Of a DNA stretch of 64,000 bases, positions 54,972 to 64,000 are shown piece by piece (within the stretch, counting starts at the first letter, position 1; the number at the start of each line of letters is the position of its first letter). Position numbers and translations under genes: made by a program. The stretch lies in assembly GCF_024700885.2 (NCBI RefSeq), contig NZ_CP117016.1, one strand, 5' to 3'. The notes under the pieces were generated by a model. The model had not been told where the DNA came from. It saw only the letters and a list, made by a program, of their open reading frames with translations, and did not search any database. This DNA is from Escherichia coli. GTDB lineage: Bacteria > Pseudomonadota > Gammaproteobacteria > Enterobacterales > Enterobacteriaceae.

Positions 54972-55076
54972 ATGAGTGCAATAGAAAATTTCGATGCCCA
55001 TACGCCCATGATGCAGCAGTACCATTTTTCTATGGTTAACCTGTTGAAATTTAGCAATAAAGTGTTTGGTAAGTAG
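54972..55076 (+). pseudogene. mutS: mutS 5' fragment: first 17 codons of DNA mismatch repair protein MutS, then out-of-gene sequence and a stop
   Basis: ATGAGTGCAATAGAAAATTTCGATGCCCATACGCCCATGATGCAGCAGTA encodes MSAIENFDAHTPMMQQY (MutS N-terminus); after 55022 the sequence turns AT-rich and non-MutS (HFSMVNLLKFSNKVFGK-stop). Confidence 0.85.
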
Positions 55077-55365
55077 ACTCTGGTTTACTGATGGTATACA
55101 TAACATATAGTTATGTTAGCCAAGAACTCGAACTTAATGTGCCTAACTACAGAATGAAAAGTAACGTTGCGATACCGAAAAAATTTGGTGGCGTAAGGAA
55201 GGAATTGAAGTTCATTCATCTCCGTGAATATCTAAATCAATTTAATAACCAATTAAATAATTAGCTGGCTACAAATAACATTGATCTAATTCAATAATTT
55301 AGGATTATGTATTGGAGCTATTGAAAAAGTTGTGTTATAAAGGAAAAAAATCAAGGGAGATTAAA

Positions 55366-55635
55366 ATGTCTATCGATATCAATAAGTTAAAATCAAAATT
55401 AATTGAAGATTATAAATTCGCTGACGAGATTAGCGATGATGAAATCAATATAGTTTTAAGTGAAATACACAAAAAGGGTGCCTCAACACCAAAAGAAGTA
55501 GACGAAATTGTCTATACGGTATTAGAGGGTAAAAGGCATTATGCTTTCGAAAGTCTGGATACATCCAATACTACATCCCTTGCATTACAGTTAATTCAGG
55601 CGGCAAAGGTATATGCTCAAACACAAGGAAGATGA
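55366..55635 (+). CDS. hypothetical small acidic protein (89 aa), first gene of island cargo cluster
   Basis: SD agggaga 6 nt upstream of ATG 55366 (track ORF 55312..55635 is the same frame); no recognisable motif. Confidence 0.5.
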   Translation: MSIDINKLKSKLIEDYKFADEISDDEINIVLSEIHKKGASTPKEVDEIVYTVLEGKRHYAFESLDTSNTTSLALQLIQAAKVYAQTQGR

Positions 55636-56401
55636 AAGCATTCACATAGAGAGTAAAAAAAAACTTGATATGGAATTGCAGTTTTTAATAGATGAGATGC
55701 AAGCTGGGAAGGATAAAAACACTATTCTTCCACTGTTGAATAAACTGCAATTACAGTTTTCGATCTATGTTACTGATTTTGAAAATTTCATCGTTCGAGT
55801 TTCAGAAAATGGGTATTATCGTTCAAAAGGTGAAATAAAAGATGTTTTAATTAGCGTAGAAAATTTTTTAAATTCAAATGCAGTTGTTGCAGAAGCAATA
55901 AATACAGTTTCAAGCATATTCAATTTACCCCAATGTTATCAAGAAGGAAATTTCATAACAACTGCTCAAATAATATTAAGAACACATCAGAAAGAAAAAG
56001 CCGAGGAATTATCTCAAATTTATAAGGATAAAGGATTATCAACAAATGGCTTTGATAGTAAAGAAAAAATTTATTTGAACAGACACGGGTTTGATATGAC
56101 CAGATTTATTTCGTTTATATTAGGATTAATTTGTATACTTTATTTTTTATATGAATACAATATAGGCAATATAAACAATGGTATAAGTTGGTTTAATTAT
56201 AGATTGTTTGTTCCAACTGGATTAGGAGCAATAATATTTTCACTATTTCCGACAACCATGCAATTAAAATTTAGAGCAGGAGTGACAGCCACTGGAATTG
56301 TCGCATTTATTATATTTTTTTATACTGTCAATCCAGCAAAAGTTCCTGATTTTCAACTTCATAATATTGATAGCAATCAATCATCAGAAAAAAACAACTG
56401 A
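55613..56401 (+). CDS. hypothetical membrane-anchored protein (262 aa): about 170-aa soluble N-domain plus about 3 C-terminal TM helices
   Basis: ORF overlaps the upstream gene by 23 nt; hydrophobic segments FISFILGLICILYFLY, LGAIIFSLF, GIVAFIIFFYTV; alternative start ATG 55670. Confidence 0.6.
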   Translation: MLKHKEDESIHIESKKKLDMELQFLIDEMQAGKDKNTILPLLNKLQLQFSIYVTDFENFIVRVSENGYYRSKGEIKDVLISVENFLNSNAVVAEAINTVSSIFNLPQCYQEGNFITTAQIILRTHQKEKAEELSQIYKDKGLSTNGFDSKEKIYLNRHGFDMTRFISFILGLICILYFLYEYNIGNINNGISWFNYRLFVPTGLGAIIFSLFPTTMQLKFRAGVTATGIVAFIIFFYTVNPAKVPDFQLHNIDSNQSSEKNN

Positions 56402-56448
56402 TATCCAAGCGGATATCAGTTTAGATCTTAAAAGGAAAAAAATCCAAA

Positions 56449-56943
56449 GTGAAATTTATAGCATATGCGTTCTTGTCATTTACTATCGCACCAATAATTG
56501 GCATAATTATTGGAATTCCATTTGATAAATACTTACTCAAAAACTATCCAGTAGTTCTTTTCACAGTAATAATTATTTTCTCGTCCTTAGGAATCTACTC
56601 TCTTTACTTGTATAAAAAATCATACAAATATGTTAATGATGCTGTTTTAGCTATCTTTACTGGTTGGGTTGCATTGACATACTTACTCACGGGAGAAAAA
56701 ACAAGTGAGATAATCCCCTCGGAGAAACTAATTGAAACACACCCATTAATGTATTATCTAATAATATTAAAATTAACTATTGTTGCAAATGGGCTTTTGG
56801 CTAAGATATTTATTACATTAAACGAATTATATCATGCTCGTAAAGCTGAAAACAAAAGTGGGAAATATACTGATGTTTTAAAAATGACTATTTCCAGCAT
56901 TAAATCTTTTTTTAATTCTCAGAAGGACGGAGTCAAAAAGTAG
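56449..56943 (+). CDS. hypothetical integral membrane protein (164 aa, about 4 TM helices)
   Basis: GTG start; hydrophobic segments throughout; weak RBS. Confidence 0.5.
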   Translation: MKFIAYAFLSFTIAPIIGIIIGIPFDKYLLKNYPVVLFTVIIIFSSLGIYSLYLYKKSYKYVNDAVLAIFTGWVALTYLLTGEKTSEIIPSEKLIETHPLMYYLIILKLTIVANGLLAKIFITLNELYHARKAENKSGKYTDVLKMTISSIKSFFNSQKDGVKK

Positions 56944-57093: not shown

Positions 57094-57689
57094 AACAGCC
57101 TCCTTTTTTCTAATTTGATAATTTACAAATATCTTAATATAACGAAAAGTCAACTTACCCGATAAAAAATAGTTATTAGAACACCTTAAACTGATAATTA
57201 CATTAATAAATGCGAGTGATGAAATTTTTGAGTGAGATCATAAATTGTTGAGGCGTAAAGTTGTTGATATACCTGCTGTTCTGGTAAGTACTGCCATAAT
57301 AAAGGGCTGGTCTCCATCTGGTTTACTGCTTATATTTGTAGCTATGCTACTTAAGTGCTCTGTCGTTATATTGGGTATACATAATGCCCAAAAATCATTA
57401 TCGGATATTATTGAATCATCTAATAAGACGATGATTTTATTCACGAAAGATAATGCCAATGATGATGACGAAGCATTAACCAACCGTATTAATCAGATCA
57501 CAACCGAAGCTTTAACCAAACTCAGTAATAAAAAAGTTGATGCTGAAAAAACCTTGAATAAGCTCTAATGGTTGATTTTCATTGGTGTATCAGTCTGGTC
57601 TATGTTTGTTTTATATCAATTCAAAGATAACATAATCCCAGTTATTGAATTCGCCTATGAGCATATAAAGAGTTTCGTTACTTATTTAT

Positions 57690-57760
57690 TAAGCAAGGGC
57701 TAACTCATCGAAGCTCCGCTTCTTTGAGTTCCCTTGTTTTTCGCCCTTCGGTTGAAAAAG
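57690..57760. promoter_or_regulatory. candidate origin of transfer (oriT): nested inverted repeats upstream of mobC
   Basis: gcaagggctaactc ... gagttcccttg arms flanking the gaagc-tcc-gcttc hairpin, followed by cgcccttcgg; position matches oriT placement in mobC-mobA modules. Confidence 0.4.
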
Positions 57761-57784
57761 AAAGTCAAAGTCTAACCTAACTCA

Positions 57785-57812
57785 TTGACATGAATTGCAT
57801 TTCCACTATAAA
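57785..57812 (+). promoter_or_regulatory. sigma-70-like promoter for mobC-mobA
   Basis: -35 ttgaca (57785-57790), 16-nt spacer, -10 tataaa (57807-57812); strong SD aaaaaggag before mobC ATG. Confidence 0.5.
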
Positions 57813-57876
57813 TATATAATGTGTTGCAAAGGAATTGCTTACTTTAAAGCGAATAAAAATATAAAAAGGAGTTTAT

Positions 57877-58260
57877 ATGGGTAAAATAATAACATTGTCG
57901 TATACAAATAATTTTAAGCCTATTAGCGATAATAAATCTCAATCATTGCGAATACACTGTGTAAGTGTACGATTAAATAAAGAAGAGTTAGAGCTTCTCA
58001 ATGCAAGCCGTGGTGATAAACGCAAAGGTGAATGGCTTCGCATGGCATCACTTCAAAAGCTTCCTCCGACCATTCCTACAATCAATTTAGAAGTTTGGCA
58101 ATCATTGTCTGATATATCTCAAAAGCTAAACCGTCTAATAATCCACCTTGATACTAAAAGCAGTAATAGTGAACTGACGAAAACAGAGATCTTCGCTGTT
58201 AAAAAGCAGATTAAAGAGCTTCGCTCATGTCTTACAGGTTCTGATCCGTCCGTAAGGTAG
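57877..58260 (+). CDS. mobC: MobC-like relaxosome accessory protein
   Basis: 127 aa; segment VSVRLNKEELELLNASRGDKRKGEWLRMASL resembles the conserved MobC core (VRLxxEE...L...A); immediately upstream of the relaxase. Confidence 0.7.
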   Translation: MGKIITLSYTNNFKPISDNKSQSLRIHCVSVRLNKEELELLNASRGDKRKGEWLRMASLQKLPPTIPTINLEVWQSLSDISQKLNRLIIHLDTKSSNSELTKTEIFAVKKQIKELRSCLTGSDPSVR

Positions 58261-58268
58261 TTATTCGC

Positions 58269-59450
58269 ATGAAAGGAATGCAGAAGATCAAAAGGGGTAA
58301 GAGCTTCTCAGGTGTGGTTCTCTATGTGTTAAAGCCAGGCTCACACCATAGAACCGTTCCAGAAGTAATTGGTGGCAACATGACAGGTGATTGCTCACAA
58401 GAGTTAATCGACGAATTTAACCTTACGAAAGAGCTTCGCTCAGATGTGGCAAAACCTGTTTGGCACAATTCACTTCGATTACCCCAGGGAGAATCTCTTA
58501 CCAACGAACAATGGAAACGAATTGCTGACGATTACATGAAGCGAATGGGGTTCGGTGATACACACCTCCGTTGCTATGTTCTTCATGATGATCAGGCTGG
58601 TCAGCACATACACATTATTGCAAGTCGCATAGATCTCAATGGCGGGAAGCTCTACTTGGGTAGGAACGAAAACCTCATCAGCACCCGCATAATCAGTGAA
58701 CTCGAATTCGCTCATGGTCTGACAGTGACCAAGACAGCCTCTTCAATTGCACCAAAGCAACCGAAGCGGAAGAGAATCTCTCGCAACGAACAGATGCTAT
58801 CAGAACGAACTGGTGTTCCCTGCCCCAAGAAGTCCCTTCAACAGATCATAGATAAAAGTTTGGCAGATACACCTGACCTTTTAACTTTTATCAAGAGGCT
58901 GGAAGAAGCAGAAGTAGGCTGGACGGCGAATGTCGCAAGCACAGGTAAAATGAACGGGTTCTCTTTCGAATACACAGGAATAGCTTTCAAAGCTTCCCAG
59001 TTAGCCAAGAGCTATTCATGGGCAAATCTTCAAAAGCAGCTTAACTACAACCCGGATCACTTAGAAGCTCTGCGAAAGGATATACAGACCAAGGAAGTTC
59101 CTGCTCCTGTTCCTGTTCCTGTTCCTGTTCCTGTTCCTGTTCCTGTTCCTGTTCCTGCAGAACCGATAGCAAGAACGGCCGCCCAGATCGAAAGCATAAG
59201 TGAAAAAATTGCCGAACTGGAACTACGACTCAAAGAAGACAGAAGAAACGAAATCGTAGAAAAGATTCTTCAAAAGAATGCAGCCAAACAGCAAAAGCAT
59301 CTCAGGCTCACCGGCTGGATTCCCTTTTTACAACGGCTCATAGAGCTTCTCAGAAAATATGGAAGGAGCATCCTCCACAAGGTTCCTACAAACTTCTTAG
59401 AAGTCTATTCAACCCATCATCTGAAACCTACAAGAAAAATTCGTTTATAG
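58269..59450 (+). CDS. mobA: MobA/VirD2-type HUH relaxase (mobilisation nuclease)
   Basis: 393 aa; N-terminal Tyr region KSFSGVVLYVLK; three-His motif HDDQAGQHIHIIASRID; coiled-coil C-terminus. Confidence 0.85.
   Translation: MKGMQKIKRGKSFSGVVLYVLKPGSHHRTVPEVIGGNMTGDCSQELIDEFNLTKELRSDVAKPVWHNSLRLPQGESLTNEQWKRIADDYMKRMGFGDTHLRCYVLHDDQAGQHIHIIASRIDLNGGKLYLGRNENLISTRIISELEFAHGLTVTKTASSIAPKQPKRKRISRNEQMLSERTGVPCPKKSLQQIIDKSLADTPDLLTFIKRLEEAEVGWTANVASTGKMNGFSFEYTGIAFKASQLAKSYSWANLQKQLNYNPDHLEALRKDIQTKEVPAPVPVPVPVPVPVPVPVPAEPIARTAAQIESISEKIAELELRLKEDRRNEIVEKILQKNAAKQQKHLRLTGWIPFLQRLIELLRKYGRSILHKVPTNFLEVYSTHHLKPTRKIRL
59100..59159 (+). repeat. hexanucleotide tandem repeat: 8 perfect CCTGTT units (59106-59153) flanked by CCTGCT and CCTGCA
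   Basis: Encodes PAPVPVPVPVPVPVPVPVPA linker inside the relaxase. Confidence 0.95.
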
Positions 59451-60894: not shown

Positions 60895-61278
60895 TTATTT
60901 TTTGTTTTTGGGAAAAATTTGATCTTCTCTAATACATTTACCATATGCAACCATTTGAAGATCTCTAACCATAAGTAGAAGCCTGTTATTTTCACTAACT
61001 AACCTCGAATTTTCTGTTTCTAATTTACTGATTTTATTCGAAGCATAGGCAAGACTTTGAGGACTTTTAATATGCTTAACAGTTTCACCTTTAGTTCTCT
61101 TTTTCTGCTGATATGCATAAGCTATTACTGTATGTCTTGAAAGAGCCTGTCTCGTTGGTTTTTTACCGAAATGATCCTCTACGGAATCACAAAGACTGAC
61201 CCAAGTTAAATCGCCTTCCCAGCCATTTATTTTATCGAGAACGAATTCAATATCTTCCTTGTTAAACTTTTTACTCAT
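60895..61278 (-). CDS. small coiled-coil protein downstream of the recombinases (TnpC-like position)
   Basis: Start at MSKKFNKEDIEF (track ORF starts 10 codons earlier); overlaps the upstream recombinase gene; C-terminal heptad-like region KISKLETENSRLVSENNRLLLMVRDLQ. Confidence 0.55.
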   Translation of the reverse strand: MSKKFNKEDIEFVLDKINGWEGDLTWVSLCDSVEDHFGKKPTRQALSRHTVIAYAYQQKKRTKGETVKHIKSPQSLAYASNKISKLETENSRLVSENNRLLLMVRDLQMVAYGKCIREDQIFPKNKK

Positions 61279-62917
61279 TATGTTCTCCTCTAAGATAATA
61301 ACTAACAATATGATTTATAATTTTACTAACTTCTTGGATTTCCTTTTCAACATAATTCGCTTTCTGTGAATTATATTGGCTTCTGTATAAATTATTCTTT
61401 TCTTCAAGCGTTTGTAAATGGTCTTTAATTTTGCAAATAATATCATCCTTACTCCCTCCACCTAAATCAGAAATCATTTCATCAGCAAATAATACTCTTC
61501 GTTCGTTTTGTCGCAACTCCTCCCAAGTTCGGTTATCATACACATTATTTTGTTCAACATTTTTCCTCCCTGACCAAAAAGCTATTTCTATATCAGAGAG
61601 CATAGCTCTTTGAGCAAGAGTGTTTAAAAGATGTCTTGGCTGATGACTACTAAAAATCTCTTTCATACCATTGGGTTGTAATGTTTTATGTCGTTGAAAA
61701 AAATTTAAGGTAGTTTCTTTTTCTGACCTTTTTTTAAAATCAGCAATAAACATCTTTTTATTTGCGGGTAAGACACAGAATAAATCAATTCCTTTCTTTA
61801 AATGTAATTGATCTTTATTTAGGATTAACAATCTATTACTAAGGTTTATAGATTTTGAAAATTCATCCCAAGATTTTGTTTTATCGCTATAATTAAAAAC
61901 TTCATTCCAAAATTCTTTTGCACTAAGAATCCCACTCTCTACCCTCATTAATATATTTTTAGTTTTAACATTGAAGCAGTCCATACAGTTTAGATTTAAA
62001 AGCTTATACAACTTTGTATGAAAATATCGTCCATTCTCATCAGTCTCTAAACTCTTATAAAACTCCAATTCTCCTTTTTCTCGTAGGGTAGCTATGCACC
62101 TTGCCGTTTGTGATAATACCCTTAATCTTTTAATGGCTAATTTTGCTATTGAATGCATATTCCTTGGAATCCACTTTATACTTTCACCATAGCCTTTTGC
62201 ACTATGATAACGAATGCCATAGGAGCCTTTCCCCTCTATGTCGTTCCCTTCAACTTCACAATCCACCTCAAGACTCAGGACTTCTGATATTCGTGTTGGA
62301 GCACAAAGAAGCAGTGCGATGATAGATGTTGTAAATATATCTCTTTGGCTTTTATCATTAGAACTAAAAACCCTACCAACAAGATCTATGACTTCCTCTT
62401 CTGGTAACTTATTTTTAATTTCTTTTTGCCCTATAAGATCTCTTACAGCTTTATTTCTAATTATTCTAAGCCTGGAGTTAAACTTACTTAATTTTGGATT
62501 TATTATGTTATTTATAGCTAACACTTCTAAAATATTCTTTAATGCCTTTTCAATAGCCCCCGCACGACTATTAGAATATTTCTTTTCTACTTGGAATAAA
62601 ATGTTGTTGATAACCTCAGAATTAATATTAACAATATGTGGTTCTACATTCAAAGTGAAGAATGAACTTTCCATAATTTTTATGACCGCCAAATAAAGTA
62701 ATGATTTACTGAGATTAGGGAAACACTCTCTATATATAATAACCTTTGATAATTGTTGAAAATGCGCTCCCATGTCTTTATCTTTTTTTATATGATTGTT
62801 ATTTTTAAATGAAACCCCTCTACCCCATGACAAATCATCCCAATTTATAATATTTTCTTTTTTTGCCTGTATCCTTACTTCATTAGCTAAAACATCATAA
62901 TTATTATAATGACTCAT
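61271..62917 (-). CDS. tyrosine recombinase, large (548 aa; Tn554 TnpB-like size and position)
   Basis: Catalytic region HQPRHLLNTLAQRAMLSDIEIAFWSGRKNVEQNNVYDNR (HxxR ... Y); box I candidate PTRISEVLSL; 14-nt overlap with upstream recombinase. Confidence 0.8.
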   Translation of the reverse strand: MSHYNNYDVLANEVRIQAKKENIINWDDLSWGRGVSFKNNNHIKKDKDMGAHFQQLSKVIIYRECFPNLSKSLLYLAVIKIMESSFFTLNVEPHIVNINSEVINNILFQVEKKYSNSRAGAIEKALKNILEVLAINNIINPKLSKFNSRLRIIRNKAVRDLIGQKEIKNKLPEEEVIDLVGRVFSSNDKSQRDIFTTSIIALLLCAPTRISEVLSLEVDCEVEGNDIEGKGSYGIRYHSAKGYGESIKWIPRNMHSIAKLAIKRLRVLSQTARCIATLREKGELEFYKSLETDENGRYFHTKLYKLLNLNCMDCFNVKTKNILMRVESGILSAKEFWNEVFNYSDKTKSWDEFSKSINLSNRLLILNKDQLHLKKGIDLFCVLPANKKMFIADFKKRSEKETTLNFFQRHKTLQPNGMKEIFSSHQPRHLLNTLAQRAMLSDIEIAFWSGRKNVEQNNVYDNRTWEELRQNERRVLFADEMISDLGGGSKDDIICKIKDHLQTLEEKNNLYRSQYNSQKANYVEKEIQEVSKIINHIVSYYLRGEHNE

Positions 62918-63881
62918 TATTCATGCCCTCCTTGTTGAGCAATTCGATTATTTTATTTATTTTACATTCTAACATTGTGAATAAGTCCGTTAGGATTTCA
63001 AAGTCTGCTTGCTTCGTATAATCTGCTATTAATACTCCAGTAAGCTTTTTTATGATTATCAAATCGTCAACCAATCTAAGGGTAATGTCGTCACTGTTTT
63101 TTAAAAATGAGGAAATATAAGGGCTTACTAACTCATTTATTGCCTGATCTATTCTGAATGAAAACTCTTCATTGTTTTTTGCATACGACAATACTGATTT
63201 CAAATTGCTATGATCTAAAGCTTTTGCTATCGTACCTAATCCATAACCTTTAAGTGCAAGCCTTGTGGCTAATGTAACCCTAAGTTGCCGAGAGTTAATC
63301 TTTTTATTTTTATCTTTACTTACCCTTTGGCAAATGGCCTGAACCCTACCGGTTATCCTCTTAGAACTCATATGCAAATTGAAGAAGTTATTTTCATATA
63401 ATTTATCAAGTTTGTAAGTCGAGTTAAAAAAACAAGGATCAATAAAGAGGGGTAAATTGTTTAATTCATCTTCACTTAATATATCGCCTACCTCACCCTG
63501 CACAAAAACCTTAACTACTGATTTAAGCTCTGATAGTGAATTGAACAAATTATCCCCTATACGCAATTCGGAAAAATCAGTTCTGAAACTATCTCCTTGT
63601 TTTAATCTGGGTATGTTTAAAAAATTACCATTTTCTTTGATATAAAGATCCTTCCTTTTTAATTGAGCGATCTGCATTGGTCTTCGCCCCGAATATATCA
63701 TCAGCATGACTAAAAGGTAGTCATTCATAGTCATATTTCCATCATTGTATTCCTTTGTCATGCCCCCAATTAGGTTCTTCAGTTCGTATTCAGATAATGG
63801 TCTTAAAGACTCTTTTCGCTCAATATATGCAGTTGTCTTGTTGGGTTTAGTTACTTTCCATTTTAAAATCAAATCCAGCAT
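62904..63881 (-). CDS. tyrosine recombinase, small (325 aa; Tn554 TnpA-like size and position)
   Basis: Box I YSGRRPMQIAQLKRKDL; box II/Tyr region LRVTLATRLALKGYGLGTIAKALDHSNLKSVLSYAKN. Confidence 0.8.
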   Translation of the reverse strand: MLDLILKWKVTKPNKTTAYIERKESLRPLSEYELKNLIGGMTKEYNDGNMTMNDYLLVMLMIYSGRRPMQIAQLKRKDLYIKENGNFLNIPRLKQGDSFRTDFSELRIGDNLFNSLSELKSVVKVFVQGEVGDILSEDELNNLPLFIDPCFFNSTYKLDKLYENNFFNLHMSSKRITGRVQAICQRVSKDKNKKINSRQLRVTLATRLALKGYGLGTIAKALDHSNLKSVLSYAKNNEEFSFRIDQAINELVSPYISSFLKNSDDITLRLVDDLIIIKKLTGVLIADYTKQADFEILTDLFTMLECKINKIIELLNKEGMNNESL

Positions 63882-64000
63882 TTCTTGATCTATGAATTCA
63901 TTATTTAACTCATAATGTTTTATTATAAAATACTTTAAACTTTCAACATGTGTATAGCTTATTTTATAATATGCATTGTAAAATCTATTTAGTAATCCAT

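Follow-up and report, generated by a model that had tools for sequence, protein, structure and literature searches.

Left end of a mobilizable island rebuilding the 5' end of mutS in Escherichia coli: a probable attachment arm of the mutS-adjacent tyrosine integrase

Introduction

In Escherichia coli, mutS/ygbA has been described as defence-island hotspot #8, occupied in 27 of 1,322 genomes (2.0%) (Hochhauser et al. 2023, PMC10121019), and the TIGER survey reported integrase clades that target mutS upstream of its Pfam matches, with the suggestion that the gene is inactivated (Mageeney et al. 2020, PMC7192596). Mobile elements have also been found in mismatch-repair genes of other bacteria. 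SpyCI resides in the 5' end of Streptococcus pyogenes mutL (PMC3430984) and a prophage-like element in mutS of Vibrio splendidus (PMC5296598), and in both cases expression is interrupted and the cells are mutators until excision. In a 2023 survey, some E. coli islands fell under the class "IME__GInt". Here we describe the left end of an island inserted in mutS, contained in a 64,000-nucleotide stretch of the E. coli contig NZ_CP117016.1 (hereafter the window). An earlier note on the window had taken positions 55023-55365, between the island junction and the first island gene, for a non-coding element end with an imperfect palindrome and short AT-rich direct repeats, where the binding sites of the element's recombinases and the promoter of the cargo genes would lie. 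We propose, with a probability of about 80%, that positions 55008-55101 correspond to the integrase-distal arm of the attachment (att) site, namely attL, of a ~17.8-kb mobilizable element that would be recombined by a heterobivalent integrase of the type known from phage lambda, phage P4 and the Yersinia high-pathogenicity island (HPI).

Results

Insertion point and reconstruction of mutS

The window is 100% identical to the genome of E. coli strain MLI114 (NZ_CP117013.1), whose locus record (L001) extends past the window end; window coordinates equal L001 coordinates plus 34299. The left flank of the island (fhlA, a gene encoding a TOBE protein, ygbA and the mutS promoter) was matched in 5,419 of the 5,426 complete E. 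coli genomes, all but two of which diverge from the window after position 55021 and run on as intact mutS, the island of the window being present in only two of the 5,426. The first base that differs from native mutS in the empty-site genomes is 55022, and the junction previously placed at 55023 was thus right to within 1-2 nt; the island-derived DNA itself probably starts slightly left of 55022. The 17.8-kb AT-rich island lies within mutS codons 13-17, a drop in GC content marking its entry, and is flanked by a 24-nt imperfect direct repeat (D15) whose copies, CCATACGCCCATGATGCAGCAGTA and CCACACTCCTATGATGCAGCAATA, are 17,837 bp apart and both fall in the mutS N-terminal coding region. The core common to both junctions is ATGATGCAGCA[G/A]TA, present at the left end as ATGATGCAGCAGTA (55008-55021, + strand, mutS codons M13-Y17) and repeated at the other end of the island. 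Comparison of attL, attR and the empty site (L003) allowed us to place the crossover: on the 5' side of ATGATG the sequence is native in attL and island-encoded in attR, while on the 3' side of CAGCA it is of island origin in attL and of host origin in attR, which locates the strand exchange within ATGATGCAGCA (55008-55018).

To compare island ends, both junctions were extracted from 12 mutS islands, one of which (L004) is the same island as that of MLI114, with varied cargos and with integrases 75-100% identical at the DNA level; the far ends of islands from Serratia quinivorans, Brenneria and Pectobacterium fontis were also taken. The sample comprised 14 left ends, in a family of ~450 members. 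The core was found at both junctions in 12 out of 12 islands as well as in the empty site, as is expected of a common core shared by attL, attR and attB with the crossover inside it. In 22 of 24 relatives belonging to other Enterobacterales species, the core likewise lies against the integrase gene.

The island separates the 5' fragment of mutS from the rest of the gene and provides a replacement for it. The displaced native fragment (mutS', 54972-55076, + strand) consists of 34 codons and a stop: the native start and codons 1-17, then 17 codons of island origin. Up to 55021 it does not differ from intact mutS, and the native mutS promoter precedes it. Beyond the island, mutS is annotated as intact with 855 amino acids (aa). 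The right end of the island supplies a new start and 19 codons (MKESASKDLSDHTPMMQQY...) that re-encode HTPMMQQY, and the MutS_I Pfam domain is complete in both versions, starting at residue 13 in the rebuilt MutS versus residue 11 in the native protein. The target of the element is the DNA coding for the conserved TPMMQQY motif, with only the variable N-terminal tail and the promoter being replaced.

Upstream of the rebuilt mutS start, a stretch of ~85 bp (L001 38420-38503) shows strong conservation in all integrase classes and genera and reads ...GGGTTTAAAGxGGTTTCACxTGGGGCCACxTGAGTAC...GACTTAAAAAAxGAGTAAAATCAATATG. It is presumably the surrogate promoter and leader of mutS; a promoter scan of the right end did not find a sigma-70 consensus.

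Conserved arm at the left end

Within the 55023-55365 region and the core that precedes it, conservation is restricted to the first ~80 bp, information content being at background beyond ~+86 from the core. What the left ends have in common is a layout alone, made of the core, a box resembling a binding site for integration host factor (IHF) and two tandem 7-8-mers of the G(G/C)nATACA type placed 11 bp apart (+61 and +72), which we observed in 10 distinct E. coli islands and in Serratia, Brenneria and Pectobacterium. The IHF-like box TAACCTGTTGAAA (55037-55049, + strand), located between the core and the arm-type sites, departs by one mismatch from YAANNNNTTGATW. A YAAnnnnTTGAWW box is present at ~+16 to +40 from the core in most left ends, and the sequence of this stretch suggests that it may bind IHF.

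Arm-type site 1, GGTTTAC (55082-55088, + strand), is a degenerate copy located 11 bp before site 2 and kept at the same offset in all sampled left ends. Site 2, TGGTATACA (55092-55100, + strand), which contains the 8-mer GGTATACA at 55093-55100, is identical to three copies at the right end. This exact 9-mer occurs four times in the 42-kb locus, always within ~200 bp of an island end: one copy is at 55092-55100, and the remaining three occupy the 150 bp that separate the integrase start codon from the new start of mutS, where, on the integrase side, their distance from the core is ~135-185 bp. Repeats distinct from the core are therefore found on both arms, as in att sites with arm-type sites. 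The alignment of the two ends that the earlier note had called for, made here on the public genome, revealed a shared core and a shared, repeated GGTATACA motif. The region is thus the end of an element, as had been supposed, and very probably carries recombinase-binding sites, judging from these sequence repeats; they would be found in its first ~80 bp and not at the palindrome or the AT-rich repeats.

Assignment of the arm to the 487-aa integrase

Four recombinase-related genes reside in the island. A 487-aa tyrosine integrase is encoded at the end opposite to the arm, divergently from mutS, and adjoins mutS in 133 of the 5,426 E. coli genomes (~2.5%). The others belong to an optional, nested module (hereafter the trio module), located at 60895-64000 on the - strand, where the window comprises the ginD-like gene (127 aa), the ginC-like gene (548 aa) and the start of the ginB-like gene and ends inside the module. 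The complete ginABCD-like set encodes proteins of 430, 456, 548 and 127 aa, with Pfam Phage_integrase in the two upstream genes; its likeness to gin is one of gene order, sizes and generic Phage_integrase/NCBIfam matches. The plural "recombinases" of the earlier note is misleading in this respect. The three sampled islands of the commonest class (~76-77% identity), those of D217-5, UPEC132 and SCU-124 (L007, L015 and L016), all possess the left-end layout, the mobilization (MOB) module and the integrase, and all lack the trio; the left end tracks the mutS-adjacent integrase.

The arm-type motif also changes together with the integrase. The island of E. coli 4/4 (L008) has TTTGTAGCC, GGCTACAAG and AGCTACAAA as its right-end repeats and GGTTACA...GGCTAC at its left end, with offsets unchanged; GGCTAC has only four copies in 21.4 kb, at +87 and at the right end. 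The 4/4 and MLI114 integrases share 54-63% identity over residues 1-100 and 78-100% over the rest. Between the two islands, identity reaches ~100% for the 214-aa protein encoded next to the integrase and ~90% for the DNA extending from the trio block up to the right end. Repeats of this class (class C, GGCTACA) are paired with the same variant N-terminus of the integrase in 10 other species (Yokenella, four Citrobacter/Pseudocitrobacter, Yersinia, Rahnella, Erwinia, Serratia nevei and Klebsiella michiganensis). As far as sequence co-variation can tell, arm-site specificity follows the N-terminal domain of the integrase.

Integrase residues 1-135 were modelled with confidence, at a predicted local distance difference test score (pLDDT) of 85.5 and a predicted template modelling score (pTM) of 0.78. 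Foldseek and PDB sequence searches with this N-terminal domain were negative. The Pfam family Arm-DNA-bind_3 is sub-threshold on the 487-aa integrase (E 0.0097) and is called on two relatives sharing 83-84% identity with it. The integrase has a separate N-terminal domain of the arm-type DNA-binding kind, and the modelled fold is the right one for it. The constant presence of the partner, the co-variation of its N-terminus with the repeats and the N-terminal fold led us to assign the left end to the 487-aa integrase and not to the trio.

Proposed recombination pathway

In the pathway that we propose, the catalytic and core-binding domains of the integrase would act on the 11-14-bp core in mutS codons 13-17, while its N-terminal domain would bind the G(G/C)nATACA repeats, three of them next to its own gene and two in tandem at the left end. 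Bending of the DNA at the IHF-like box would allow a single integrase molecule to bridge arm and core. Recombination between attP, whose junction is predicted to read ...GACCACACTCCT-ATGATGCAGCAGTA-CCATTTTTCTATGG..., and attB would proceed with strand exchange inside ATGATGCAGCA. The native mutS promoter and 17 codons would then be stranded at the left end, the island-encoded surrogate 5' end would be fused to the remaining mutS, and mismatch repair would be kept. Excision probably needs an accessory factor.

Evidence against the assignment and alternative explanations

Several points weigh against assigning the arm to the 487-aa integrase. The IHF consensus is matched imperfectly in most islands, with 1-2 mismatches being typical and a perfect TAACTAATTGATA being present in one island only (L013). 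Arm site 1 is degenerate, and in site 2 any base (T, C, G or A) may stand at position 3, whereas most islands keep GGTATACA in their right-end copies; the co-variation between left and right ends is consequently carried essentially by one class switch, which is seen at the right end in many species. Every functional step, including protein binding, DNA bending, the roles of IHF and of an excisionase, directionality, present activity and the source of cargo transcription, is read from sequence. Finally, seven E. coli genomes (hits H23-H29) contain, away from mutS, a copy of the core plus the 81-bp arm with 82-84% identity. In GmM066 this copy (L005 14987-15081) belongs to a tRNA-Thr island and lies beside a diverged trio and a relaxase gene, without an integrase of the 487-aa type, an arrangement for which the proposed model does not account. 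The DNA left of the GmM066 core has no similarity to mutS islands and only a faint match (E 0.099) to the C-terminus of a P4-type integrase.

The GmM066 island would fit a different scheme, in which the trio would recognize the left end as the short AT-rich 3' terminus of a GInt, the mutS-adjacent integrase then belonging to a second element in tandem. GInts consist of ginABCD, cargo and a short, poorly conserved AT-rich 3' end, insert in the 5' part of genes and are flanked by 10-11-nt imperfect repeats (PMC5385486); in MLI114, the trio likewise points away from the left end with cargo in between. We nevertheless consider this scheme unlikely. The trio does not accompany the left end constantly, given the three commonest-class islands that have kept the layout without it. 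The left-end repeats agree with the ones next to the 487-aa integrase gene and change along with the N-terminal domain of that integrase; when motif class and N-terminus switch, ~90% identity is retained in the DNA that runs from the trio block to the right end. ginABCD does not sit at a terminus, ~7 kb (tRNAs, defence cargo and integrase) lying between the trio and the right end, and no core-like sequence with up to three mismatches occurs upstream of the ginA-like gene, where a GInt would have its att repeat. The tandem-element model, a GInt beside an integrase island, was itself rejected, as neither a third copy of the core nor an arm-type motif, and hence no tandem junction, was found between the trio and the integrase module. 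The trio module moreover has a conserved 24-bp palindrome of its own, half-sites of which recur at none of the sampled left ends; the sequence GTGAATATC at ~55224 was discarded as a half-site of the trio, since each island has ~14 one-mismatch hits and no such hit is shared with other left ends. Still further from being likely is an explanation by shared ancestry, which would make the ~80-bp similarity the trace of a decaying, immobile remnant devoid of functional sites. Disrupted genes do exist in the family, the integrase being interrupted by an insertion sequence (IS) in Serratia quinivorans and Brenneria and the ginC-like gene by IS1 in CFSAN061761, and the mobility of the element is a prediction from sequence. 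Yet the sequence between the motifs is nearly at background while motif positions and the 11-bp spacing are kept across four genera, and the motif class switches coordinately at both ends. Mali, Egypt and the UK have moreover yielded unrelated E. coli that carry near-identical islands with different flanks; together with the ~2.5% occupancy and the many cargos, these islands indicate ongoing transfer. The "minimal" islands of Serratia and Brenneria proved uninformative as a test of which genes suffice, because their integrases are IS-disrupted.

A last alternative, to which we give little credit, though somewhat more than to a decaying remnant, is that the palindrome and the AT-rich repeats (55098-55295) are functional, as an operator or promoter of the cargo, an origin of transfer (oriT) or sites for accessory proteins. 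The palindrome, ACATAAC-atata-GTTATGT with a 7-bp stem and a 5-nt loop, does exist (55098-55116), but we judge it a chance feature: a perfect stem of at least 7 bp arose in 54% of 2,000 composition-matched Markov randomisations (343 bp, 30% GC), and the palindrome was not found in any other related island examined. For these two reasons it was rejected as a recombinase site or oriT. Site 2 overlaps the first 3 nt of its left arm, the palindrome beginning where conservation ends, and a second palindrome with a 7-bp stem, equally good, is present at 55240-55258. The short AT-rich direct repeats are genuinely present as well; they amount to one pair of 12-mers with one mismatch, ATCTAAATCAAT and ATCTAATTCAAT at 55230 and 55284, and are weak and specific to the MLI114 cargo variant. 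No conservation was found in any other island beyond ~+86 from the core, and the conserved segment near the transfer genes lies just 5' of the MOB genes (~57683-57876), which is the usual place of an oriT. As for a promoter, the first cargo gene requires one somewhere upstream, and a sigma-70-like match (TTTACT-16-TATAGT, 55084-55111) overlaps the palindrome. It is however the sole such match in the region, against a mean of 3.1 in shuffled sequences, and nothing beyond this weak match speaks for a cargo promoter here. The palindrome and the AT-rich repeats have no detectable role.

Remainder of the region and transcription of the cargo

Downstream of the conserved arm, positions 55102-55365 (+ strand) form a variant-specific leader of cargo slot 1, unconserved between islands: it is 100% identical in CFSAN061761, which has the same island, and homology elsewhere was not found. 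A ribosome-binding site, AAGGGAG, is located at 55353-55359. The absence of a credible open reading frame (ORF) from 55023-55365 was borne out as far as it could be tested, save that the mutS' frame extends 55 nt into the region; RefSeq annotates no coding sequence between the junction and the first island gene (55366). The sole sizeable ORF (55091-55264, 57 aa) has no Pfam, PADLOC or NCBIfam family, and the region has no Rfam match. A terminator scan of the region found none. Without a terminator after it, the native mutS promoter points into cargo slot 1. Slot-1 genes are annotated in 11 islands, and in 9 of these they have the same orientation as the displaced promoter. Transcription of the cargo by read-through from the native mutS promoter is at least as plausible as from a local promoter.

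Gene content of the island

From the left end, the island comprises three small slot-1 genes, the MOB module, genes for small lipoproteins, a 141-aa gene and the ginABCD-like block, followed by tRNA-Asp, tRNA-Val, Gabija, the gene of the 214-aa helix-turn-helix (HTH)-like protein and the 487-aa integrase gene. Slot 1 (55366-56943, + strand) is annotated with genes of 89, 262 and 164 aa, the last two encoding predicted membrane proteins, for which Pfam, PADLOC and NCBIfam gave no family. In sister islands the slot holds retron Ec48, ABC-3C, HerA/DUF4297 or HNH systems, and by analogy the three genes are a candidate undescribed defence system. The MOB module (57877-59450, + strand), conserved in all islands examined, consists of a 127-aa accessory gene and a MobA/VirD2-type relaxase gene (Pfam Relaxase, E = 5e-27), and the ~57683-57876 segment preceding it is conserved between islands. 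The relaxase gene contains a GTTCCT tandem repeat (59097-59162, L001 24798-24863) encoding a (Val-Pro)n linker (VPAPVPVPVPVPVPVPVPVP), and the length of the relaxase varies from 385 to 420 aa across islands. The annotation of the 17.8 kb lists no type IV secretion genes. An integrase, a relaxase, att repeats and the lack of annotated mating-pore genes make the island an integrative mobilizable element (IME). The Gabija genes were matched with E = 1.8e-240 (GajA) and E = 2.6e-198 (GajB), and the cargo of the family includes Gabija, DRT3, retron Ec48, Qat, ToxN and ABC-3C. Pfam, PADLOC and NCBIfam returned no family for the ginC-like, ginD-like, 141-aa and 214-aa proteins.

The 214-aa gene (L001 36246-36890) stands beside the integrase gene and is absent from some islands (L011, L014). 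The N-terminal ~100 residues of its product include an HTH-like LGISIKTLARYRQNGGGPPYIQ motif and are 60-100% identical across island classes, whereas the C-terminal half changes with the adjacent cargo. It is possible, in view of this motif, that the N-terminal HTH half acts as an excisionase or a regulator.

Several further observations concern the trio module and the DNA past the window end. The perfect 24-bp palindrome TATATTCAC-CTTAAG-GTGAATATA (L001 31329-31352) is located ~125 bp upstream of the ginA-like gene and, with its 9-bp inverted arms and 6-bp centre, is shaped like the core site of a tyrosine recombinase. Its sequence does not vary among the trio-bearing mutS islands, 9 of 9 of which have it against 0 of 3 trio-less ones, and it borders the variable defence-cargo slot 2 (Gabija, DRT3, Qat or ToxN); GmM066 has a different palindrome (TTATTTGACGTCAAATAA) at the equivalent place. 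It could be a gin operator or a site of cassette exchange. The attempt to define the boundaries of the trio module by comparing trio-less with trio-bearing islands failed, the trio-less class being too diverged. Exactly after the palindrome, tRNA-Asp(GTC), tRNA-Val(TAC) and a third tRNA-like stretch without an ARAGORN call (L001 31382-31620) form a 245-bp indel found in MLI114, CFSAN061761 and 4/4; islands without this cluster keep "ATCCCCC", which resembles the 3' tail of the third tRNA-like sequence. In the CFSAN061761 copy (L004 27313-28010), where IS1 splits the ginC-like gene, the left end is still 100% identical. In P. fontis (L035, reverse-complement 6373) we noted a second core, with an island-type surrogate mutS 5' end before it and a left-end arm after it. 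It looks like a tandem or remnant junction, a sign that elements of the family can stack at the site.

Discussion

If the assignment is correct, the island end becomes an attachment site with defined parts, namely a core, a site of bending and arm repeats that pair with an identified integrase domain, and the roles of the four co-resident recombinases are separated. The family, which extends across Enterobacterales and occupies ~2.5% of E. coli genomes, rebuilds mutS, which corrects the published suspicion of inactivation. The precise boundaries of hotspot #8 should also help to delimit cargo when mining for defence systems.

Integration may further swap the control of mutS, with the captured native promoter driving the cargo and the island-borne 5' region driving mutS, so that expression of both would be coupled to the state of the element. 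We put this forward as a tentative idea, and a rather doubtful one. The rebuilt mutS 5' region adjoins the integrase arm-type sites and the divergent integrase promoter. Were the idea true, the level and the N-terminus of MutS, hence mutation and recombination rates, would be coupled to the state of the element, and the integrase, by occupying the left-arm sites, which overlap a weak promoter-like match (55084-55111), would tune how much transcription reads through into the cargo.

Hotspot #8 is the same locus as the one described here, with defence cargo and a similar occupancy (2.0% there versus 133 of 5,426 genomes, 2.5%, here). The hotspot and TIGER surveys do not give the anatomy of the att site, and a non-exhaustive literature search did not find a description of a mutS-island att site or of the replacement of the mutS 5' end. 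Contrary to the suggestion made in the TIGER survey, mutS is rebuilt intact by the island; an integration point at the very start of the MutS domains is common to both accounts. SpyCI and the V. splendidus element are likewise mobile elements in the 5' region of a mismatch-repair gene; unlike them, the mutS island supplies a replacement 5' end, and loss of MutS is not expected.

The resemblance to GInts (2017, PMC5385486) lies in the ginABCD-like order (two tyrosine recombinases followed by 548-aa and 127-aa proteins), the insertion in the 5' end of a gene, the imperfect flanking repeats and the short AT-rich terminal sequence. In contrast to GInts, the trio of the mutS islands is internal and optional and has its own 24-bp palindrome, and the ends of the island match a fourth integrase. 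The closest parallels for these ends are the P and P' arms of phage lambda Int and the P4-family integrase of the Yersinia HPI, in which a short core is shared by attB, attL and attR and arm-type repeats flank the core; in the mutS island three such repeats are integrase-proximal and two, in tandem, are distal, with the IHF-like box between core and arm. Some features set the island apart. HPI and P4 use a tRNA gene and lambda an intergenic site, whereas the target here is the 5' coding end of a protein gene, which is why the element brings a promoter, a start codon and an N-terminus as surrogates for those of the target gene. At 487 aa the integrase is long, its arm-binding domain is marginal by sequence, and the element is not a phage but a relaxase-bearing mobilizable island. 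The left-end arm is nonetheless a conventional att arm of a heterobivalent integrase and not a new kind of mechanism.

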